Shown here piece after piece: positions 40,207 through 50,753 of a stretch of 64,000 bases of DNA. The DNA comes from Thermodesulfovibrionales bacterium (GTDB lineage Bacteria; Nitrospirota; Thermodesulfovibrionia; Thermodesulfovibrionales; UBA6898), in assembly GCA_044450345.1 (NCBI GenBank), contig JBIOIY010000001.1, forward strand, positions 183,009 through 247,008, given 5' to 3'. The notes beneath the pieces were generated by a model, which did not search any database, was not told the DNA's origin, and was given only the letters and a program-made list of their open reading frames with translations. Made by a program: the position numbers and the translations under genes. Within the stretch, counting starts at the first letter, position 1. The number at the start of each line of letters is the position of its first letter.

Positions 40207-40977
40207 TCAGGCGACTTTCTTCAGGCTCGCTTCAAGGGCCTGAAGCAGATTATCCGGTGGCGTGGGTTGGAGGCGCCTGGGACGCAGGACCGCAATCTTT
40301 TCCCCGCGGGCTTTTTTATCGATCAGAGTTTGCAGCTTTTTCTGATGTTCGTTTTCGAATTTCTGCGGTTGAAACGGAGCGGTCAACTGATTGATTAAAT
40401 CGCTCCCGATTTTCAGTTCCTTTTCTGACAGAGGAATGTTCTGCAGTTCAAGAGATTTTACCGAAATCACTTCGTCGGCATACCTCAGGGTAGTCAGGCG
40501 AAGGATCTTCCCGATTGCCTGCAAGGCCCCGAGATAGTACCTCTTTCTCATGGCCCAGGTGCAGATACCCGCCACATCCATTTCCTTCAGGGCCGCGGCA
40601 AGAGCGTTATATCCTTTTGCGTGAATATCCGGCTCCAGATAGTAGACGCGCTCGAGGAAAACGGGATCGATCTGTCCGGTCTTGACGAATTCGTGGACTT
40701 CGACTAACCGGCTGCTCTCGGGAGCCGTTTGTTCGAGCTCCGCCGGATCGACAATGATATATTTCCCGTCCTCCACTTCAAACCCTTTGACCTGCGCTTC
40801 CACAGGCACCGGTTCCTTTTCATACGCACAGACCATCTGTTGGCGCAATTTCATATGGTCGTGCCTGTGAAGGAGGTGAAACTGGATCCGCTCTTCCCTG
40901 ATCGCGGTATGCAGCTTCACGGGCAGATTGACATTCCCAAAATTGATATATCCTTTCCAGATCGCTTTTCCCGCCAT
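40207..40977 (-). CDS. ku: Ku protein (first in operon)
   Basis: IWKGYINFGNVNLPVKL, KGFE, YYLEP, LRYADE, LLQALEAS. Confidence 0.9.
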   Translation of the reverse strand: MAGKAIWKGYINFGNVNLPVKLHTAIREERIQFHLLHRHDHMKLRQQMVCAYEKEPVPVEAQVKGFEVEDGKYIIVDPAELEQTAPESSRLVEVHEFVKTGQIDPVFLERVYYLEPDIHAKGYNALAAALKEMDVAGICTWAMRKRYYLGALQAIGKILRLTTLRYADEVISVKSLELQNIPLSEKELKIGSDLINQLTAPFQPQKFENEHQKKLQTLIDKKARGEKIAVLRPRRLQPTPPDNLLQALEASLKKVA

Positions 40978-41130
40978 TGCAAGTCCTCGGAGTTCTTTCA
41001 AGACCAAATCATTTGTTTCGCCCCATTGCGGCGTTACCTATGAAAGAAGTATCGCATAAAATGTCTCGCTGTCAAGCGTGGCTGAAGATATTACGTTGAC
41101 AAATATGAGAACCCATCCGAAAATTAAAAT

Positions 41131-41859
41131 ATGAAAATCCATGTCGGCACAAGCGGGTATGGGTATAAGGAATGGAAAGGGACATTCTATCCCGAGAAGA
41201 TCTCGCCCAAGGAGATGCTTCGCTTCTATTCGGAACGCCTCGGCGCGGTAGAGATCAATAATACCTTTTATCACATGCCCACAGAGGGCGTCCTGGCGTC
41301 CTGGGCGGAACAGGTCCCCGACGATTTTGTCTTCGCGCTGAAAGCGCCTCAGGTCATAACTCACCTGAAGCGGTTGAGAAATGTGGACGCGGAGGCCGAT
41401 TACCTCTTCAGGACTCTCTTGGTTCTAAAGAAGAGGCTGGGTCCGGTACTTTTTCAGTTTCCGAAGAGTTTTCATGCCGACCGCCCTGCGCTGGAGAATT
41501 TTCTCGATCTGATCCCCGGCAATCTGTCCTGCGCGTTCGAGTTCCGCAGCCCATCCTGGCTCGAGATTGAAATCCTGGACCTCCTTCGTAAAAGGGGACA
41601 CAGCCTCTGCATCGCGGATACTGATGAGAATCCGGCAAATGAGATCATCACCACGGCTTCATGGGGGTATCTGCGCCTGCGCCGCTCTGATTATACGGAT
41701 GCCGATCTGTCGGAATGGATGGGAAGACTCCTTTCGCAAAAATGGGAAAGGGCCTTCGTTTTCTTTAAGCATGAGGAAGAGGCCAAGGGAGCCGAAATGG
41801 CGATGCGTTTTCGTGCGCTTACCGACACAAAGGCGAATAAAATACGACGGGAAAGATAA
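41131..41859 (+). CDS. DUF72 (YecE) family protein
   Basis: VGTSG.Y..W...FYP, VEINNTFY, LFQFP, FEFR, YLRLR. Confidence 0.92.
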   Translation: MKIHVGTSGYGYKEWKGTFYPEKISPKEMLRFYSERLGAVEINNTFYHMPTEGVLASWAEQVPDDFVFALKAPQVITHLKRLRNVDAEADYLFRTLLVLKKRLGPVLFQFPKSFHADRPALENFLDLIPGNLSCAFEFRSPSWLEIEILDLLRKRGHSLCIADTDENPANEIITTASWGYLRLRRSDYTDADLSEWMGRLLSQKWERAFVFFKHEEEAKGAEMAMRFRALTDTKANKIRRER

Positions 41860-41984: not shown

Positions 41985-42797
41985 TCAGCCCTTTTTGGCC
42001 TCAAAAATCGTTGCGATGCCGAATGTCATCGAATGGACATTCACATCTACAAACCCGCAGGTCCCCAAAATACGTGCGAATTCTTCTGTAGAAGGAAATG
42101 CCTTAATTGACCGGGGCAGGTAATTATAGGGCACTTCTGTCTTAAGTACCTTCATCGCAATAAAAGGCATAATCCTGAAGCAATATACCCTATAAAGGGG
42201 TTTAACCCAGCGGCTTTTTGGAGGAGTGAGTTCGAGACAGCAGAACTTTCCTCCGGGCTTTAGGACCCTGAAAGCTTCCTGCAATGCCGCCGCCGTATCG
42301 GGGATATTTCTCATGCCGAAGGAAACTGTTACCGCATCGAAGGAATTATCAGGAAAATTAAGGTCCTTTGCATCCGAAAGGGCCAAAATGATATTGGACA
42401 ACCGATAATTGAGCTTCTTTTCCGCTTCGCCGAGCATTTCTTTACTGAAATCCACGCCAAATACCGATCCCCTTTTCCCTACTTTTCTCGATAGCAGGAA
42501 CGCTAATTTTCCGGTACCTGTACATACATCCAGTACCTTCTCTCCTCCCCTTAGCTCCAGAAGGGAAACGAGCCTCCTTCGCCATCCCTGATCAAGACCG
42601 AAGCTGAAAAATGAGCTCAGAAAATCAATATCCGATGCGATAGCTGCAAATATCGCTTTTATGAAGGTGTCCCTGTCACGCTGAGTCGTATTTTTCGTCA
42701 GTCTCCTTTCACCCGCTACTTCAATACCTCCGGAGGCATAAAGATTGCAAAACTCGTCCGCATTTTGTTGGCCAGTGGGGTTCTCATTTGCCGCCAT
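41985..42797 (-). CDS. UbiE/MenG family quinone methyltransferase
   Basis: SFGLD..WRR, LDVCTGTG, FGMRN, RVLKPGG, YL..SI..FP. Confidence 0.88.
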   Translation of the reverse strand: MAANENPTGQQNADEFCNLYASGGIEVAGERRLTKNTTQRDRDTFIKAIFAAIASDIDFLSSFFSFGLDQGWRRRLVSLLELRGGEKVLDVCTGTGKLAFLLSRKVGKRGSVFGVDFSKEMLGEAEKKLNYRLSNIILALSDAKDLNFPDNSFDAVTVSFGMRNIPDTAAALQEAFRVLKPGGKFCCLELTPPKSRWVKPLYRVYCFRIMPFIAMKVLKTEVPYNYLPRSIKAFPSTEEFARILGTCGFVDVNVHSMTFGIATIFEAKKG

Positions 42798-42967
42798 TGA
42801 GCACCTCCTCCTTTAATTGAATTTATTAATCCATTAGTATTACTAATAACATTGTCTCACGAAATGAAGATTATTTCATCATATTTTTTTTTCAGTACGT
42901 AAAAGGGGGGAATATATTTACAATGTGTGTGACCTTCAAAAAATGGGTATACTGGATAATAATTACC

Positions 42968-44221
42968 ATGTTTGTTAATAGACTCTTCGGAAAGCACTCA
43001 CCGAAACTTGGCGGGCTCGATATCCTCAAATTCATCGGTCCCGGATTTCTGGTGACCGTGGGGTTCATCGACCCCGGCAACTGGGCCACGAACGTCGCCG
43101 CCGGTTCCATTTACGGCTATGATCTTTTATGGGTCATCACTCTCTCCACTCTTATGCTGATCGTGCTCCAGCACAATGCGGCGCATCTGGGGATAGTAAC
43201 CGGTCTTTGTCTCGCCGAATCCTCTGCGAAGTTCTTCGGGAGAAAGACAGGCGGGATCTTCCTTTCAAGCGCTCTGGTCGCAACTGTTTCGACCGGCCTG
43301 GCCGAGGTCCTTGGCGCGGCGATAGGCCTCAACATGCTCTTTCACATCCCCATCATGACCGGCGCCCTCATCACCGCCGTGGCCGCCGGATATCTTCTCT
43401 TTTCGAACGGTTATAGAAAACTCGAAAGATGGATCATAACCTTCGTGTCGATAATAGGGTTCTCCTTTCTCTTAGAGCTGAGCTTAGTGCATATCGGCTG
43501 GTCAGAGGCTGCAAAAGGCTGGGCCATACCCGTTGTCCCTTCCAACTCGCTTCCAATCGTGATGAGTTTACTTGGGGCTGTGGTCATGCCGCATAATCTC
43601 TTCCTTCATTCCGAGATAATTCAGAGCAGGCAGTTGAACATCAAAGGCGAGGAGGCAATTACCAGGCAACTGAAATACGAATTCACCGATACGCTCTTTG
43701 CGATGCTGATAGGATGGGCGATAAACAGCGCGATTATTATCATGGCCGCTTCCGTCTTCTATTCCCGCGGGACGGTCGTCACTGATCTGGCGCAGGCGGA
43801 TGCAACGCTGAAGCCCCTTCTCGGAAATGCAGCGGGAGTCATCTTTGGCACGGCACTTCTTCTTGCAGGCTTTTCCTCTTCAATAACCGCTGCCATGGCC
43901 GGCGGAAGCATCTTCGCAGGGATGTTCGGCGAGCCCTTTGATATCGCCGACAGCCATTCGCAGACAGGAGCCGTCATAACACTAACAGGAGCAATAGCGG
44001 CCATTTTCCTTCTCAAAGACGTCTTTCAGGGACTCATCTGGAGTCAGATCATATTGAGCATCCAACTGCCGTGGTCTATCTTTTCCCTTGTCAGCCTCAC
44101 CTCCTCTTCAAAGGTGATGGGAAAATTCTCGAATTCCTTCCGGGACAATGTCCTTTTGTGGTCGACCGCAATCGTTGTCTCGGGTTTGAACATCATGCTC
44201 TTCGTGAGTATGCTTCGATAA
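42968..44221 (+). CDS. mntH: NRAMP family divalent metal transporter
   Basis: GPG, IDPGN, GAVVMPHNLFLHS, SQIILSIQLP. Confidence 0.9.
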   Translation: MFVNRLFGKHSPKLGGLDILKFIGPGFLVTVGFIDPGNWATNVAAGSIYGYDLLWVITLSTLMLIVLQHNAAHLGIVTGLCLAESSAKFFGRKTGGIFLSSALVATVSTGLAEVLGAAIGLNMLFHIPIMTGALITAVAAGYLLFSNGYRKLERWIITFVSIIGFSFLLELSLVHIGWSEAAKGWAIPVVPSNSLPIVMSLLGAVVMPHNLFLHSEIIQSRQLNIKGEEAITRQLKYEFTDTLFAMLIGWAINSAIIIMAASVFYSRGTVVTDLAQADATLKPLLGNAAGVIFGTALLLAGFSSSITAAMAGGSIFAGMFGEPFDIADSHSQTGAVITLTGAIAAIFLLKDVFQGLIWSQIILSIQLPWSIFSLVSLTSSSKVMGKFSNSFRDNVLLWSTAIVVSGLNIMLFVSMLR

Positions 44222-44321: not shown

Positions 44322-44513
44322 TTATCCTGATTTTTCCCTGCCTTCGTCGGTAAAAAAGTGCATAAGAAACTCCCCGTCCTTCGGGGGCAGGTCGAATTTC
44401 AGGCAGGCCTTTTCAATCAACGTAAACAGGGCTGCTCCCGGATTGTCCTGACGCTCATCCGATATCCATTTGATCGCCTTTCTCAACTGTTCACCCTCAG
44501 GGAGAATACTCAT
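44322..44513 (-). CDS. Small hypothetical protein
   Basis: GGAGG RBS; PEGEQLRKAIKWIS...A..KFDL.P.D.EFL. Confidence 0.75.
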   Translation of the reverse strand: MSILPEGEQLRKAIKWISDERQDNPGAALFTLIEKACLKFDLPPKDGEFLMHFFTDEGREKSG

Positions 44514-44544: not shown

Positions 44545-45123
44545 CTACTTTTTCCTCATGCGAGGGAAATATCCGGGCACGCCCTTTTTATATTTAGCAT
44601 ATTCTTCACCGAAGCGGCCAAGAAGTTCCTTTTCTTCAAGAGGGATAATGACTGCGTTGACAATGATGAGGTCGAGCAACGTTACGGCCCCGACGGCTAT
44701 AACACCGGAAAGCAAAAAAACCCCGCCAAACATAAGAGTATGGGCAAGATAGGTAGGGTGTCTCACAAAAGAAAAGGCGCCTTCGGTAACGAGCCTGCCC
44801 GCGGCCTCCCGGGACACCTCCGGCAGTCCCATAAGTCCCAACAGAGTGAGCAGTCTTCCGGTCCAAATCTGAAGCATCGCGCCTCCCGTCAGGATGACAA
44901 GTCCGGCTATGCGGGCCAACGGGCCCGGATCGATCCTGTAATTAAGGAAAAAGGCCCGGTTGAGGTAAATGAAATACGCAAGAGGCGGCCACAGGAGAGC
45001 GGGCATGATATAGGTAAACCCACCGATCCTTTTAAAAAAACTCGCAAGGCCATGGACGGGAATCCAGAAAAGCGGTATGATCGGCCAAATAATAATGGTG
45101 AGCAAGGCGATCAGGTCAGTCAA
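44545..45123 (-). CDS. Isoprenylcysteine carboxyl methyltransferase (ICMT/PEMT) family membrane methyltransferase
   Basis: Multi-TM, LVTEGAFSFVRHPTY, EEKELLGRFGEEY..Y; TTG start overlaps rSAM TGA stop. Confidence 0.85.
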   Translation of the reverse strand: MTDLIALLTIIIWPIIPLFWIPVHGLASFFKRIGGFTYIMPALLWPPLAYFIYLNRAFFLNYRIDPGPLARIAGLVILTGGAMLQIWTGRLLTLLGLMGLPEVSREAAGRLVTEGAFSFVRHPTYLAHTLMFGGVFLLSGVIAVGAVTLLDLIIVNAVIIPLEEKELLGRFGEEYAKYKKGVPGYFPRMRKK

Positions 45124-46163
45124 GTCTCTTCACCGATAAAACATTGCGGGTCTTCGGCGAGGAAGTCATCTTCTCCATGCGCGACCGAATAGGCATATGC
45201 GATCGCCCTGCATCCCCTGCATCCCGCCCATCTCTTGCATTGGCCGCACTTCCCTTTATATCTTTCCCTGTCCCTGAGCGCCTCAAGCACAGGAGATGTT
45301 GCCCAGATTTCCCGGATCCTTTCTTCCCTTATATTCCCTATCGGGACAAACAACCTCCTGCATGGGACTATGGTCCCGTCCGAAAGAAAGGTCAGTCCTG
45401 AAACACCTGCGGCGCATCCCGCTGTGGGCACTGAACTATCTGCTGAGAGGCAATTCATCTGGGAAGCGACCGGGTCACCGGTGACGATCTCGAGACCCTC
45501 AGGCCTGAGGGAAAGAATCTTTTCGTATGTCTCCCTTACCTTTTCGCTGTCTATCATCTTATCCAGGAGCCCCAACCCCCGCCCGGATGGTACAAGTCTC
45601 GAAAAACCGAGCCTCTGAACGCCCAGAAAAACAGAGAGTTCTACCAATCTCATGAAGTCCCCGACATTAATTTCAGACAGCGTTGCGTTTATCGTAACGT
45701 TCAGGCCTGCGTCCAGAAGATTCCGGATGCCTTTCACCGATGATGCAAAACTGCCCTTCCCCCTTATCGAATCGTGGATTTCTTCAGTCCCTTCCATACT
45801 GACCTGGACCCCTTTCACACTGAGACCGGCAAGCGCCATCGCCCTTTCCCTGGTTATCAGTGTGCCGTTCGAAAGGAGATATATATCAAATCCCAGATTG
45901 CCGATCGTATCGATAATCTCGAATATGTCGCGCCTCAGAAGAGGTTCCCCTCCGGTGATATTGAAGCTGGGGGAGAACGAAATATCATAAGCCTCGGACC
46001 AGGCCTTCAGGGTCTCGTCGATCTCGTTTGCCACGGACGTTATCTCTTTAAGGCTCAGCTCATCGGTCCTGCCGCCTGTCTGATAGCAATGTGTACACCT
46101 CAGATTGCACCTCTCCGTCAGGTGCCACTGGATAAAAAATTCATGCGAGTTGGCTACAGACAT
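45120..46163 (-). CDS. Radical SAM/SPASM domain protein, candidate peptide maturase
   Basis: CNLRCTHC, TGGEP, SNG, VQVS; SPASM Cys array CAAG...PC...CGQC....C.GCR...DPQC. Confidence 0.92.
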   Translation of the reverse strand: MSVANSHEFFIQWHLTERCNLRCTHCYQTGGRTDELSLKEITSVANEIDETLKAWSEAYDISFSPSFNITGGEPLLRRDIFEIIDTIGNLGFDIYLLSNGTLITRERAMALAGLSVKGVQVSMEGTEEIHDSIRGKGSFASSVKGIRNLLDAGLNVTINATLSEINVGDFMRLVELSVFLGVQRLGFSRLVPSGRGLGLLDKMIDSEKVRETYEKILSLRPEGLEIVTGDPVASQMNCLSADSSVPTAGCAAGVSGLTFLSDGTIVPCRRLFVPIGNIREERIREIWATSPVLEALRDRERYKGKCGQCKRWAGCRGCRAIAYAYSVAHGEDDFLAEDPQCFIGEET

Positions 46164-46218
46164 AAACTATAAAGCTCCTCAGCTATAGTAAGTTACTTTT
46201 CATAATTTTCTCGCCAAT

Positions 46219-46262
46219 AAAAAAATAAAAAAGCGGATACGGTACATTTTCCCATATCCGCT
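46219..46262 (-). terminator. Intrinsic terminator between peptide ORF and rSAM gene
   Basis: AGCGGAUAUGG-loop-CCGUAUCCGCU (11 bp, one G-U) followed by long U-run. Confidence 0.8.
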
Positions 46263-46413
46263 AACGACATTTCGTTGCCGACCGGCAACTTCAGCTCTTT
46301 CAGCCCTTTCATTTGTGGCATATCTTGCCAGGATTTTCCCGGGCCGCTTTCTTTAATGCCGTCCAAAAGGCGGCCTCCTTGACAAGAGCCTCTCTGCTCA
46401 CTGTCTTCTTCAC
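46261..46413 (-). CDS. Putative multi-selenocysteine RiPP precursor peptide (not in ORF track)
   Basis: AGGAGGTG RBS 6 nt before GTG (in-frame ATG at 46419 also possible); MKKTVSREALVKEAAFWTALKKAARENPGKICHK-U-KG-U-KS-U-SCRSATKCR-TAG, TGA at 46309-11, 46300-02, 46291-93. Confidence 0.7.
46274..46289 (-). promoter_or_regulatory. SECIS-like hairpin
   Basis: mRNA GUUGCC-GGUC-GGCAAC, G-initiated loop 25, 16 and 7 nt after the three UGAs. Confidence 0.6.
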
Positions 46414-46521
46414 CTGCATCACCTCCTCCTCTCACGCAAGCGGATATGCACTGACGGGCAAAGAGCGCCCCTTTCTGTTTATAGAATATCTCACCCATAA
46501 ATAAAAGCAAGGAGAATATTA

Positions 46522-48477
46522 CTAAGGCCACTCGAGGAATTTTCTCAGGATGTCTTCATTGCATATGGGTTCGAGACATACTCCCGAGGCAAGGCACGGG
46601 GTAACACAGCCGTCTTCGCCATTGTGCACCACTGTTTTATACGGTCTGAACAGATTTACGGCTGCCGCCGCCAGTTCACTTTCGGCCGCCCTCCCCACAG
46701 TCAGTTTTGTCATATTGAAATAAGCGTCCATCGCGCAGAAATAATACCCCGCATGGATGCCCAGGTCAGAGGCGCTGCCGGAAAAGGTCTTCAACCCCTC
46801 TTCGGCGCGCCGGTAATATTCCTCTTTCCCGGTTATTAAGTGGAGTCTGAGCAACTGCATGATTCCAACCGAATTCGCTGACGGATGCGGAATGTCCTCA
46901 ACCGCCTTGAGCCTCACCCCCAAGACTTCTTCGTCCGTATCTAAAAAGCCGCCCGATACTTCATCCCAGAATTTTTTTATGCAAAACCCTGCAATCTTTT
47001 CCGCACGCTCCAGATAAACAGGTTCTGCCTCGACTTCGTACGCATCGATCATGGCCGCCATGATATATACGTAATCGTCGAGAAGACCCTTCACCCCCTC
47101 GGAATGAAGAAGTTCGTCTTCCCTGATACGGCCATTCCATATCCTCTCCAGACTCTTCAGCGCGAAGTCTTTTACATTGACGTCACCCAGAATCCTGTAT
47201 GCCGTCAAATAGGCGGCAATGAACATGCCGTTGATTCCGGTATAGAGCGTTTTATCGACGAACGGCGCTGCTCTCGCCTTTCTCCCCCTGAGCAATTTTT
47301 CCCTGCCTGAGTTGATTATTTCCAGAACCTTTTCGAATCCATAGCCGGTCGCCGATGCGATATCCTCAGGTGTCATCGCAACGAAGAGGACCCTCTTTGA
47401 TTCATCGTGGTGCATAGCCCCCTTGTCATGAAAGAGATGCATCTCCAACACCCTGCGTTCCTCTTCGCTGAGAAGACCTTTGAAGTCTCCCTCCGTCCAT
47501 GTGAAATACCCTCCTTCGTCGTCGGCGGTAACATCGGCGTCCTGGCTTGCGTAAAAGCCTCCTTCAGGATCTGCAAGCACTTCGAGGGAAAACCGTATTA
47601 TGCCCTCTGCCACGGACTTGAAGTATTCAGTCCCGAATACTGCATACGCGCCCGAATAATTTCTGAGCAGCCACGCGTTGTCGTCGGCCATCTTTTCAAA
47701 GTGAGGGACTATCCACGCCTCGTCCGTTGAATACCTGTGAAATCCGCCGCCAATCTGGTCATGGAACCCGCCCTTTGCCATGGAATCGAGGGTCTTCCTC
47801 GCCGCATGTCCGATCGTTTCCTCACGCGTAAAATAATACCTGTTCGTGAGGAACTCAACCGCACCGGGGGCAGGGAATTTAGGAGCCGTTCCAAACCCTC
47901 CGTGCTCAGGATCATAGGCGGACAACATTGACGATTCGGCACGTTCAAGAACGGCCCGGTCTATCTCTCCGGATGAGTGAGCATCTCCCTTGAGCACCGC
48001 AAGCAGCCTGTCGGCATATTCCTCAATCTCTCCGCGCCTCGTCTTGTAAAAATCCGATACCGCCTTAAGCACCTTGCCAAACCCGGGCCTCCCCTGTCTG
48101 TCTTCAGGCGGGAAATAGGTGCCGCCGAAAAAAGGTTTTTTTTGAGGAGTAAGGAAGACGGAGAGGGGCCATCCGCTGCCGTTGCCCATCGACGATACAG
48201 CCCGCTGGTAACGTCTGTCGATATCGGGTCTCTCGTCCCTGTCAAGCTTTATGCTGATAAAATCTTCATTCAGGAGGCGAGCGATCACCTCATCCTCAAA
48301 AGATTCCTGCGCCATAACGTGACACCAGTGACACCATATGGCCCCCGTGCTGAGAAAAACAGGTTTATCTTCTTTCGCAGCTCTTTCGAACGCTTCCTCG
48401 CACCACGGGTACCACTCGATCGGCTGCCCGGCCGCGTGTTTCAGATAAGGGGATTTCTCCTGAACCAGCCTGTTCAT
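46522..48477 (-). CDS. YyaL/SSP411 family thioredoxin-domain protein
   Basis: MNRL..EKSPYL.HA, WCHWCHVM, DRDERPDID, GWPL, GGGFHRYS, PHFEKM. Confidence 0.93.
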   Translation of the reverse strand: MNRLVQEKSPYLKHAAGQPIEWYPWCEEAFERAAKEDKPVFLSTGAIWCHWCHVMAQESFEDEVIARLLNEDFISIKLDRDERPDIDRRYQRAVSSMGNGSGWPLSVFLTPQKKPFFGGTYFPPEDRQGRPGFGKVLKAVSDFYKTRRGEIEEYADRLLAVLKGDAHSSGEIDRAVLERAESSMLSAYDPEHGGFGTAPKFPAPGAVEFLTNRYYFTREETIGHAARKTLDSMAKGGFHDQIGGGFHRYSTDEAWIVPHFEKMADDNAWLLRNYSGAYAVFGTEYFKSVAEGIIRFSLEVLADPEGGFYASQDADVTADDEGGYFTWTEGDFKGLLSEEERRVLEMHLFHDKGAMHHDESKRVLFVAMTPEDIASATGYGFEKVLEIINSGREKLLRGRKARAAPFVDKTLYTGINGMFIAAYLTAYRILGDVNVKDFALKSLERIWNGRIREDELLHSEGVKGLLDDYVYIMAAMIDAYEVEAEPVYLERAEKIAGFCIKKFWDEVSGGFLDTDEEVLGVRLKAVEDIPHPSANSVGIMQLLRLHLITGKEEYYRRAEEGLKTFSGSASDLGIHAGYYFCAMDAYFNMTKLTVGRAAESELAAAAVNLFRPYKTVVHNGEDGCVTPCLASGVCLEPICNEDILRKFLEWP

Positions 48478-48508
48478 CAAACAACTTGTCCGGTTGTGCA
48501 CCGCATGC

Positions 48509-49015
48509 TCATTGTCTCTTGATCATCTTCATCGTCTCACGCATGAAAGCCGCAAGGTCCGACGGCTGGCGCGAGGTAACGAGATTCCCGTCCACGACCA
48601 CCTCTCTGTCTTCATAAAGGGCCCCTGCTTCTTTCATCTCCGGAGCTACAGATTTATAACAGGTGGCATGCCTGCCCTTAAGAAGGCCCGCCGTTATCAG
48701 TAATTGAGGGCCATGGCATATAGCCGAGACCGGCTTGTTCTCCCTGAAAAAAAGACGGGCTATCCCGACCGCGGTCCTCTCCCTTCTTATCGCTTCCGGC
48801 GCCTTGCCGCCGGGGAGGATGAGGAGATGGTATTCCTCCGGGTCAACCTCTTCAACAGTCTTGCTTACCTCTATCTCGTAGCCGTGTTTGCCTTTTATCC
48901 GGCCTTTTTTCATGGAAGCGATATCCACCTCGATCCCCTCTTCCTTCAGCCGATAATAAGGCACAAGAAGTTCCAAATCCTCAAAGTTATCTGCGCTGAT
49001 CATCAAAGCCTTCAT
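48509..49015 (-). CDS. PfpI/DJ-1 family protein
   Basis: FEDLE, LPGG, AICHGP, VVVDGNLVTSR. Confidence 0.92.
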   Translation of the reverse strand: MKALMISADNFEDLELLVPYYRLKEEGIEVDIASMKKGRIKGKHGYEIEVSKTVEEVDPEEYHLLILPGGKAPEAIRRERTAVGIARLFFRENKPVSAICHGPQLLITAGLLKGRHATCYKSVAPEMKEAGALYEDREVVVDGNLVTSRQPSDLAAFMRETMKMIKRQ

Positions 49016-49246
49016 AGACTCATCCCCTTTTTTAAAGGGTATCACAGAAGAAAGAATTGTCAATCGCCCGGAACATGGCTGGAACATGGAGAGGGGGGAA
49101 ACGCTACATATCACGGGCCATGTGGACCCCGGAGGGGCTTTCTTCGGGCCGTTTCATTTTTGCCGCAGCCATAAACCTGGCTTTGTCGCATTATCGCGTC
49201 AAGGTGTTATAATTTTTGTAATAATGCTTTCAACGCAGATCCGGAT

Positions 49247-50137
49247 ATGAACGAAGACAAAATATATGATTGCCTTATCGTCGGAGCAGGCCCCGGCGGC
49301 TTGCAGGCGGCCATCTATCTGGGACGATATAACCGCACTGTAATGCTCATAGACAGAGGGGGCGGGAGGACATGGCACGCAAAACACATCGAGAATTTTC
49401 TCACCCAGAGGGCCATTTCCGGCCGGGAGATCATACGGATCGGGATGGAGCAGGCAGCGAGTTTCAATGTGAAGATCGAAAGAGGCCTGGTCACGCAAAT
49501 CCTCAAGAACGAATATTTCGAGGTATCAACCGCGGAAAAGCGGTACCTGGGGAAATTCGTAATCGTGTCTACCGGCGCCTATGACAACCTGCCGCCTGTG
49601 GAGAACATCCACAAGTTTCTGGGCACCTATTTCTTTACCTGCATCGACTGCGACGGATACCGTACTACGGGGAAGAAACTCATCATCCTCGGCAACTCTC
49701 TGAAGACAGTTCACCTGGCGTTCGGCATGAAAGAGATGTTCACGCAAGACATCACACTCGTCCTGTATTTTCATACGCCGCCCGAGGCATATATCGAAAC
49801 GCTCAGGGAGGAGAACATCCGTCTGATCATGGGCCGCCCGGATAAGATCATAGGAGACAATAAGATCGAGGCCGTCGAACTTCAAGACGGCACGCGCATC
49901 GAATGCGAGGTGATCATGTCCAACTTAGGGTATAAATTGAACGATTCATTTCTAGACGGACTGAAACTCAGGAAGGACGGTGACAATTTCAAATATATAA
50001 CCGACCGCAACTATGAATCATCATTAAGCGGGCTCTATATCCTGGGTCCCCTGACCGGCAACGACCAGGCGATCATCGCGGCAGGAGAAGGCGCCTCGGC
50101 CGCGATCGATATAAAAAAGAGGCTCCTCGATCATTAA
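49247..50137 (+). CDS. Thioredoxin reductase-like FAD-dependent oxidoreductase
   Basis: IVGAGPGG, STGA, CIDCDG, AAGEG. Confidence 0.85.
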   Translation: MNEDKIYDCLIVGAGPGGLQAAIYLGRYNRTVMLIDRGGGRTWHAKHIENFLTQRAISGREIIRIGMEQAASFNVKIERGLVTQILKNEYFEVSTAEKRYLGKFVIVSTGAYDNLPPVENIHKFLGTYFFTCIDCDGYRTTGKKLIILGNSLKTVHLAFGMKEMFTQDITLVLYFHTPPEAYIETLREENIRLIMGRPDKIIGDNKIEAVELQDGTRIECEVIMSNLGYKLNDSFLDGLKLRKDGDNFKYITDRNYESSLSGLYILGPLTGNDQAIIAAGEGASAAIDIKKRLLDH

Positions 50138-50147
50138 GTCCGGCCCT

Positions 50148-50753
50148 TCAGTGCAGGAAGGGGACCTTGAATATCAGGAGATAGCCGTTGAGCGAAAGGA
50201 TGCCGCCCACCACCGCAGAGACCAGTGAAAAAACAAATACAGCATGGGAAGAGGATAAGATCGCGATGGACGCAAGGACGATTGAAATCTGCAGGAGCAC
50301 CTCGGCAAAGTCGAAATAGGGGTCTTTCCCCCTGTTGATATCCCGTTCAGACTCCAGCTTTCTCGCCTCCTGTTCGATCGGAAGCTTCTCTTTCCTGTAA
50401 CGCCCCTCTTCCTCTCCGATCTTACTTATCAGCTCCTCATAATGTTTCCGTGCCTCCGGGGTCATTGATTTTCCCCTCTCGACGAGGATAGCCTCCATCT
50501 GCATCTTCTGCGTCCTGTAAAGGTGTTCCCTCATGACCTTGGATTGGTAGAATGCCCACTGGTCCGACGACTGCTGCTGGGCAAGGAGCATCTCCTTCAT
50601 CGCGTTGTTGCCTCCCAAAGAAGAGATGGCAAGAACAACTGCATAAATAGCGGTGGTAAGGGCCACCCGCTTTGTAAATTTTTTGCCCTTAACCTCTTCA
50701 AGCTCTTCGATATCGGGAAGTTCGACTTCAGCCATATCCTTACTATCCTCCAC
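50148..50753 (-). CDS. DUF4337-like membrane protein
   Basis: VALTTA, SDQWAFYQSK, LLQISIVLAS. Confidence 0.8.
   Translation of the reverse strand: MEDSKDMAEVELPDIEELEEVKGKKFTKRVALTTAIYAVVLAISSLGGNNAMKEMLLAQQQSSDQWAFYQSKVMREHLYRTQKMQMEAILVERGKSMTPEARKHYEELISKIGEEEGRYRKEKLPIEQEARKLESERDINRGKDPYFDFAEVLLQISIVLASIAILSSSHAVFVFSLVSAVVGGILSLNGYLLIFKVPFLH

Follow-up and report, generated by a model that had tools for sequence, protein, structure and literature searches.

The product of the radical S-adenosylmethionine (SAM) enzyme SbtM is called, in the part of PMC9204691 concerned with it, the first selenocysteine (Sec)-containing peptide made by the ribosome and modified after translation (RiPP) installed by a radical SAM enzyme. 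Two maturases of sacti- and ranthipeptides, PapB and Tte1186, tolerate the replacement of Cys by Sec, with a product state that shows a Se-C interaction (PMC10177961). Table 1 of PMC13188914, a 2026 review, includes double Sec motifs of the form UxxU in NF041115, the FmdB family and a Prx-like family. Here we describe a locus from the genome of a Thermodesulfovibrionales bacterium, in a stretch of 64,000 nt hereafter called the window. It holds a short gene with two in-frame UGA codons, a hairpin of the Sec insertion sequence (SECIS) type just behind its stop, and next to it a gene for a radical SAM/SPASM enzyme. The explanation that we consider likely is that a ribosomally made peptide of 40 residues with two Sec is modified in its core, under the guidance of its leader, by this dedicated enzyme. 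At the level of sequence, comparison of about 180 related loci shows the gene and its frame, the two Sec codons with the stop behind them, the hairpin, and the link between peptide and enzyme.

The peptide gene lies on the minus strand (Table 1). Its Shine-Dalgarno sequence AGGAGGAGGT stands 7 nt ahead of a GTG at 46413, and the frame, if all TGAs are read as U, runs MKKTVSREALVKEAAFWTALKKAARENPGKICHK-U-KG-U-KS-U-SCRSATKCR-TAG. The peptide deduced from the comparison is MKKTVSREALVKEAAFWTALKKAARENPGKICHKUKGUKS, a conserved helical leader followed by C32-H-K-U35-K-G-U38-K-S. The Shine-Dalgarno sequence, the GTG, the three TGAs, the hairpins and the genes for the radical SAM/SPASM enzyme and the methyltransferase are all, exact to the base, where a preliminary description of this DNA had placed them. 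That description had also proposed a hidden Sec peptide gene missed by gene callers, and this is borne out by the databases: a protein homologue search returned neither a full-length nor an all-Cys peptide, only 17 truncated entries, all of which end at ...CHK, that is, in the 34-residue form. The six named ones are called "hypothetical protein". A search of the ESM Atlas with the 34-mer gave no usable match.

Related loci were gathered from both ends of the module. The enzyme-anchored search took in 60 relatives, with radical SAM orthologues of 57-78% identity. The peptide open reading frame (ORF) was present in 24 of the 26 orthologue loci having upstream DNA, with its start position and its Shine-Dalgarno sequence kept, the latter as AGGAGGTGA at equal spacing to an ATG that aligns with the GTG of the window. 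The peptide-anchored search used a degenerate pattern, which allowed any TGN at the first two UGA sites, on 185,579 species genomes; it matched 95 stretches, of which 80 were examined (the pattern loci). This pattern is blind to TAA or TAG at codons 35 and 38, and therefore the enzyme-anchored loci and a profile search are the fair sets for these codons. The profile, a hidden Markov model (HMM) of 35 peptides, reads through any stop, and was run on 401 genomes sampled across the phylum. It found the peptide in 75 of them, and in 58 of the 329 of high quality. Most record titles of the pattern matches name Nitrospirota or Thermodesulfovibrionia, and about a dozen name "delta proteobacterium", Desulfobulbales or Thermodesulfobacteriota.

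Inspection of the aligned loci revealed the mark of a coding frame. Entropy by codon position was 0.87 at third positions, 0.42 at first and 0.49 at second. Beyond UGA2, K39 is written AAA or AAG, and Ser40, a codon outside the search pattern, is written AGC, AGT, TCA, TCT or TCC. Selection at the amino-acid level acts on all 31 residues of the leader, in which E13, W17 and P28 are invariant. Because it is conserved across the related loci, the ORF goes far beyond a chance feature. An alternative ORF of 112 aa (46193-46531, minus strand, ...MPQMKGLKELKLPVGNE...), which avoids the TGAs, was rejected: it has neither a conserved start nor a Shine-Dalgarno sequence, its changes are non-synonymous where those of the peptide frame are synonymous, and it is broken by a 1-nt indel in the hairpin loop. 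It extends over the peptide gene and the terminator. In 21 related loci, an antisense ORF of about 99 aa is also found opposite the peptide gene. The two probably arise from the purine-rich composition of the coding strand, and could mislead gene callers. As for transcripts, a single study supplies short contigs in two metatranscriptome libraries; they span the peptide gene (a 198-nt contig over 46258-46449, with 5 differences in 192 letters) and a portion of the radical SAM gene, which is a weak sign of expression.

Codons 35 and 38 were then compared with codon 41. The set of 104 loci (Table 1) amounts to 83 distinct loci, some being common to the enzyme- and peptide-anchored sets, and the HMM-derived set comprises the 28 parsable loci among the 30 best profile loci. 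All 24 enzyme-anchored peptides have TGA at both codons 35 and 38, and all 74 near-full-length profile matches in the 401 genomes have exactly two TGAs and no other stop. At codon 41, the 104 loci have TGA (61), TAA (23), TAG (14) or a sense codon then TAG (6), and the 28 HMM-derived loci, in which codons 35 and 38 are TGA throughout, have TGA (13), TAA (13), TAG (1) or TCA (1). On this comparison, the third UGA is the stop, the peptide has two Sec and the gene ends at 46291. The preliminary description, which suggested a poly-Sec peptide and allowed that UGA3 may be the stop, was right on the latter, since codon 41 alternates with TAA or TAG in about one third to half of loci; its Sec assignments stand for codons 35 and 38, and its third Sec does not. 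The TAG at 46263-46261 is irrelevant, because the frame ends at codon 41.

An exchange of TGA for TGY at the three codons had been put forward as a check. It was found at codons 35 and 38, whereas codon 41 gives TAA or TAG. One genome of 6.3 Mb (G426) has three peptide paralogues, with TGA/TGA (L084), TGC/TGA (L113) and TGA/TGC (L174) at codons 35 and 38, which is a classical Sec/Cys interchange, occurring once per site. Neither the protein database search nor the 401-genome profile search yielded an all-Cys peptide. Two of the paralogues are distant from the enzyme gene; L084 precedes an ORF resembling pyridine-nucleotide-disulfide oxidoreductases, and L113 is beside a YceI-like ORF.

The hairpin GUUGCC-GGUC-GGCAAC begins 1 nt past the stop, 10 nt past UGA2 and 19 nt past UGA1. 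Its stem occurs among the loci as GUUGCC/GGCAAC, GUCGCC/GGCGAC, GCUGCC/GGCAGC, GUUGCU/AGCAAC and CCCGC/GCGGG. Across 76 distinct sequences, 96.9% of cells were paired, with 47 double-change cells at four of the six pairs; none of 500 shuffles was as good, and slid controls were paired in only 15-61% of cells. The SECIS-type hairpin that had been proposed is thus upheld by the covariation check. Its loop is GGUC or GGUCN, a 1-nt indel that shifts any frame beyond, and the tails past the hairpin vary in length and content, with no protein-level conservation. The tail SCRSATKCR, previously read as peptide with two extra Cys, is by these alignments a covarying SECIS hairpin in the RNA and not peptide. 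A scan of 46150-46500 against Rfam gave only two chance-level matches (E 3.6 and 6.3).

The apex CC-GGUC(U)-GG is common to the SECIS elements of two formate-dehydrogenase-type genes of the same genome. The usual distance from UGA to loop is 16-37 nt. The GGUC loop lies 18 nt past UGA2 and 27 nt past UGA1, and the GU loop of the genome's own elements lies 19-20 nt from the UGA in the formate-dehydrogenase-type genes and about 33 nt in selD. Because these distances are comparable, we conclude that both UGAs are within apparent reach of the organism's SelB, and a single hairpin may serve the two, 9 nt apart. In a clade of eight loci, whose leader reads ...NPVKICRK-U-SS-U-KS, the SECIS is in most cases displaced downstream by about 9-12 nt, which shows that the family tolerates variation in this spacing. 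Loci of this clade have no terminator, and their enzyme gene is about 60 nt downstream of the peptide (57-78 nt past the pattern match).

The machinery for Sec, which had been named as a point to confirm, is present in the source genome: selA, selB, selD and tRNA-Sec were all found. Where Sec would be expected, the reading frames of selD itself and of three formate-dehydrogenase-type genes (contigs C28, C2, C38 and C26) each contain a TGA, and the selenoproteome therefore has multiple members.

An intrinsic terminator separates the peptide gene from the enzyme gene (Table 1), and none of 200 shuffles folds equally well. In most related loci, a long hairpin, often with a U-run, is found at this place. 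A consensus scan for promoters and terminators found nothing, the terminator loop being 9 nt and the maximum of the scan 8. Counts of second hairpins with a minimum free energy of -20 or below were about at shuffle level and do not discriminate, and pairing of the A-tract with the U-tract masks the U-run. The long hairpin lies about 10-20 nt past the SECIS, and its arms, approximately GGCAGAUAUG and CAUAUCUGCC, are similar across distant lineages, with a variable inner part; a strict two-arm pattern matched 22 of the 80 pattern loci. Such sequence conservation of a terminator stem is unusual.

The enzyme has 347 residues, and its scores for the radical SAM and SPASM domains are both over the gathering scores. 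The cysteines C19, C23 and C26 (CxxxCxxC) and, in the SPASM part, C250, C268, C306, C309, C315, C318 and C341 are invariant in 20 orthologues. By sequence, its closest solved relatives are SkfB (1.2e-17) and PqqE (6.3e-15), which both modify peptides. It did not reach the cut-off of any NCBIfam model. The tight link of peptide and enzyme, which had been claimed from the window, extends across taxa: besides the 24 of 26 enzyme-anchored loci, 73 of the 80 pattern loci have the enzyme downstream of the peptide, 70 within 600 nt and three at about +680 to +716. In two paralogous radical SAM/SPASM loci (37-38% identity), the upstream gene has a hydrophobic N-terminal part and a Gly/Cys/Ser-rich tail (...CSGCSSGDSGG...CSGCGGGGD); its product is thus another candidate substrate, belonging to a SPASM enzyme other than the present one.

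A structure of the complex was predicted with custom alignments for the enzyme together with SAM, three 4Fe-4S clusters and the part of the peptide that is read under code 11 (34 residues). The interface score ipSAE was 0.89, versus 0.01 for the best of three controls. Among solved complexes 116 of 157 attain this value, and among mismatched pairs 2 of 215, a calibration that is only rough here, given the custom alignments and the ligands folded along. The three runs had no less than 84% of their contacts in agreement, and the pLDDT of the partner was at least 82. In the model, a leader helix (residues 8-21, with E13 and W17) sits on enzyme residues 55-61 and 284-297, and peptide residues 22-34 pass by enzyme residues 228-231, 245-251 (with C250) and 313-318. 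Binding of the peptide to the enzyme is thereby predicted, and the model supports a direct contact with the leader that needs no RiPP recognition element (RRE); a substrate and a partner are not told apart by it.

Four other explanations were weighed. In one of them, UGA1 is an ordinary stop, the product is a peptide of 34 residues, and the conserved sequence downstream is merely an RNA element, as database annotation would have it and as the distance from UGA1 to the hairpin, greater than the formate dehydrogenase spacing, might suggest. However, codon 35 is never TAA or TAG in the 74 HMM matches or in the 28 loci, of which 14 have TAA or TAG at codon 41, it is TGC in L113, and codons 36-40 vary synonymously, a switch between Ser codon families included; we hold this reading to be highly improbable. 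Reading on through all three TGAs as far as the TAG would give a precursor of 50 residues that has three each of Sec and Cys, and in the window this frame is indeed open. It is refuted by the comparison of loci, and we leave it almost no probability: plain stops, TAA or TAG, occupy codon 41 in 37 of 104 and 14 of 28 loci, the loop indel shifts the later frame, conservation of SCRSAT follows base-pairing (GUCGCC/GGCGAC, GCUGCC/GGCAGC), and the tail is variable in length and sequence. The small ORF could also be a selenium-sensing leader peptide, an attenuator in which the outcome of Sec insertion positions the ribosome and gates the terminator and the radical SAM gene. The order of ORF, two rare recoded codons, strong terminator and gene is what one would expect, but selection acts on the amino acids of the leader, peptide genes distant from any radical SAM gene retain both SECIS and hairpin, one clade is terminator-free, paralogues swap Sec for Cys and for no other residue, and binding to the enzyme is confidently predicted. 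An attenuator is therefore very unlikely.

A more serious competitor, unlikely in our view, accepts a genuine mini-selenoprotein with two Sec, and makes it a redox partner, a carrier of metal or selenium, or a selenium donor, while the enzyme acts elsewhere, for example on a tetrapyrrole-like cofactor. AhbD and NirJ2 are the top NCBIfam similarities of the enzyme, C-x-x-U-x-x-U resembles a metal- or cluster-binding motif, the neighbours include redox genes (DUF255 thioredoxin, DJ-1 and a thioredoxin-reductase-like gene), no protease or exporter is nearby, the enzyme has no RRE, and the predicted interface would fit a partner as well as a substrate. Yet neither AhbD nor NirJ2 is matched with even 40% of its cut-off score, and the two-gene pairing is the pattern of a peptide and its maturase. 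Moreover, in the model the peptide stretches over the enzyme in its full length, residues 22-34 being close to the region of the invariant C250 and to residues 313-318 of the SPASM domain, as would be expected of a substrate made of leader and core.

Several observations weigh against a two-Sec substrate of this enzyme. On the side of decoding, the spacing from UGA1 to the loop is 7 nt longer than in the genome's formate dehydrogenase genes, and a single hairpin would have to serve two UGAs 9 nt apart. The survey of selB, which was found in all 42 peptide-bearing genomes tested, could have spoken against Sec, yet it discriminates nothing, as the gene is also in 19 of 20 peptide-less relatives. 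One locus (L177, genome G427) has TAA at codon 38, with the TGA at codon 35 retained, and is the sole counterexample. It is located upstream of the radical SAM orthologue of G427, and an intact copy (L049) is found elsewhere in that genome; L177 is possibly a decaying copy or pseudogene, or else a genuine exception or one-Sec variant. On the side of linkage, two radical SAM orthologue loci have no peptide alongside, six of the 80 pattern loci have no enzyme in the DNA examined, and one has no room for it. The five genomes behind the six orphan peptide loci have each exactly one enzyme orthologue elsewhere (60-62% identity). As to the enzyme, Pfam finds no RRE or PqqD domain in it, its top NCBIfam scores are those of AhbD (185.6 bits) and NirJ2 (183.2 bits), both far under the 500-bit cut-offs (TIGR04545 and TIGR04055), and the complex was folded with the 34-residue part of the peptide, which ends before the two Sec. 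Finally, related genomes are non-independent samples, and the RNA contigs are short, come from a single study and possibly reflect DNA carry-over.

For the substrate reading, the following course of events is proposed. Translation would start at the GTG, and UGA35 and UGA38 would be decoded as Sec by SelB and tRNA-Sec, recruited by the single hairpin just past the real stop, the third UGA; for UGA2 this hairpin would be at a customary distance, and UGA1 would lie another 9 nt away. The terminator after the peptide gene would give a high ratio of peptide to enzyme. The amphipathic leader (E13, W17, P28) would dock on enzyme residues 55-61 and 284-297 with no need of an RRE, and guide the terminal C-x-x-U-x-x-U-K-S stretch to the site of SAM and the auxiliary cluster, where the core would be modified by means of a 5'-deoxyadenosyl radical. 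The likeliest outcomes would be either cross-links of the kind known from sacti- and ranthipeptides, joining carbon to selenium or sulfur, or oxidation at the beta-carbon of Sec or Cys, as by SbtM and anSME. The cross-links gain plausibility from the acceptance of Sec by PapB and Tte1186 and from the Se-C product state of these enzymes. In some lineages, the ICMT-like methyltransferase may add a tailoring step. That the enzyme modifies the peptide is, in our judgement, quite likely, and the assignment of that modification to cross-linking is tentative. The product is probably an intracellular, redox-active or metal-binding selenopeptide; it probably stays in the cell because no protease or exporter travels with the module. 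In its widest form, the proposal is of an obligately selenium-dependent two-gene module, conserved class-wide, in which a radical SAM enzyme introduces natural C-Se bonds, or some other modification specific to Sec, into a C-x-x-U-x-x-U peptide, in which one post-stop SECIS programmes two successive Sec insertions, and whose product serves anaerobic bacteria of the sulfur cycle inside the cell as a new redox peptide or selenium cofactor. Taken as a whole, this is speculative and rather doubtful.

Genes around the module vary with the lineage. In the window the order is DJ-1, DUF255, peptide, radical SAM enzyme and methyltransferase, with a thioredoxin-reductase-like gene on the opposite strand. 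The start of the methyltransferase gene overlaps the stop of the radical SAM gene, and its product belongs to the ICMT/PEMT family by Pfam, with no NCBIfam equivalog reached. It had been presented as a fixed component, but it is in only 13 of the 80 pattern loci, and in 14 of the 28 loci of relatives with a radical SAM match of at least 57%; it is a lineage-specific accessory. The 63-aa ORF is found in two loci of the closest relatives and in one of the 80 pattern loci, and is a doubtful member of the system. Recurring neighbours among the pattern loci are a YceI-like gene (15), DUF255 (8-9) and DJ-1/PfpI (8), and no protease or exporter recurs near these loci. The core module is two genes, peptide and enzyme, and the remainder is lineage-specific.

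Table 1. Features of the selenopeptide locus and its surroundings, in window coordinates
Feature	Position	Strand	Basis
Selenopeptide gene, 40 codons + stop TGA 46293-46291	46291..46413	-	Comparison across loci
Shine-Dalgarno sequence AGGAGGAGGT	46421..46430	-	Read in sequence; kept in orthologues as AGGAGGTGA
UGA1, Sec35	46309..46311	-	TGA in 103/104 loci, TGC in L113; TGA in 28/28 HMM-derived loci
UGA2, Sec38	46300..46302	-	TGA in 104/104 and 28/28 loci; TGC in paralogue L174; TAA in L177
SECIS hairpin GUUGCC-GGUC-GGCAAC	46274..46289	-	Covariation; apex common to the genome's own SECIS elements
Intrinsic terminator, 11-bp hairpin 46262-46232 + U-run	46216..46262	-	Fold z = -4.24
Radical SAM/SPASM enzyme, 347 aa, proposed maturase	45120..46163	-	PF04055 79.8 bits, PF13186 39.2 bits
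ICMT/PEMT-family membrane methyltransferase	44545..45123	-	PEMT 38.4 (cut-off 25), ICMT 26.8 (cut-off 24)
63-aa ORF	44322..44513	-	No Pfam/NCBIfam match; kept only in closest relatives
DUF255 thioredoxin-domain protein	46522..48501	-	Upstream, lineage-specific context
DJ-1/PfpI	48509..49114	-	Upstream, lineage-specific context
Ku-like protein	40207-41007	-	Pfam
DUF72	41131-41859	+	Pfam
UbiE-type methyltransferase	41985-42797	-	Pfam
Nramp transporter	42923-44221	+	Pfam
Thioredoxin-reductase-like oxidoreductase	49247-50137	+	Pfam
DUF4337	50148-50753	-	Pfam

The locus bears on several wider questions. The module is in about a fifth of the sampled genomes of the phylum and in some genomes labelled Desulfobacterota, and its peptide is invisible to annotation, where it is shown as a truncated hypothetical protein of 34 aa, so the selenoproteome counts of the carrier organisms would need correcting. 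Two UGAs decoded from one post-stop SECIS would make a compact natural test case. Radical SAM chemistry on native Sec would become accessible, earlier work having used only synthetic Sec substitutions.

How does the locus compare with what has been described? The peptide is without a match among the models of Pfam and of NCBIfam (June 2026), no C-x-x-U-x-x-U peptide is among the 119 families of Table 1 in PMC13188914, and the full-text literature searched gave no description of the family. The UXX-star proteins of that table have Sec three residues ahead of the stop, hence a SECIS past the stop, and with the UxxU proteins they are, by analogy, precedents for the spacing and for the post-stop SECIS. 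In contrast to the leader-bearing peptide paired here with a radical SAM enzyme, these UXX-star and UxxU entries are stand-alone proteins or domains. None of 35 peptides matched the UXX-star models NF041114 and NF041211 at E up to 10, and only the U-x-x-stop layout is common. The enzyme shares with AhbD and NirJ2, besides the scores, a similar length and the lack of an RRE, but its context is a peptide gene and not a heme or siroheme operon.

The sacti- and ranthipeptide maturases (SkfB, PapB, and Tte1186 of the SCIFF type) are likewise radical SAM/SPASM enzymes with two auxiliary clusters that act on short substrates with Cys-rich C-terminal cores, and SkfB is the best solved relative by sequence. 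A housekeeping-like module of two genes, peptide and enzyme, resembles SCIFF. In contrast, the present enzyme falls far short of the cut-offs of all NCBIfam models for these families, such as StsB (102.9 of 625 bits) and PapB (76.4 of 340 bits), it has no RRE, and the donor residues are natively Sec.

The nearest likeness is to SbtA/SbtM, in which a small Sec peptide, with at least two Sec and truncated by gene callers, also adjoins a radical SAM/SPASM enzyme. The differences are many. None of the 35 peptides matches the SbtA model TIGR04081, in line with the earlier suggestion that the leader is unlike that of the selenobiotic family. The core is C-x-x-U-x-x-U-K-S-stop here, whereas passages of PMC9204691 and PMC13188914 give Gly-flanked Sec, GGUG or SGUG, for SbtA. 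The enzyme scores 128.8 bits against the 350-bit cut-off of the SbtM model TIGR04082, and only over the C-terminal 320 of its 516 positions; it has 347 aa and no N-terminal extension. A single SECIS past the stop is available to both UGAs, and the carriers are mainly Nitrospirota, versus Geobacter and Desulfobacteria for SbtA/SbtM. The literature searched gave no second natural system of Sec peptide and radical SAM enzyme besides SbtA/SbtM. The peptide and enzyme described here look like an undescribed second family of selenium-containing modified peptides, which would make them the second natural system of selenium peptide and radical SAM enzyme, unrelated to SbtA/SbtM.

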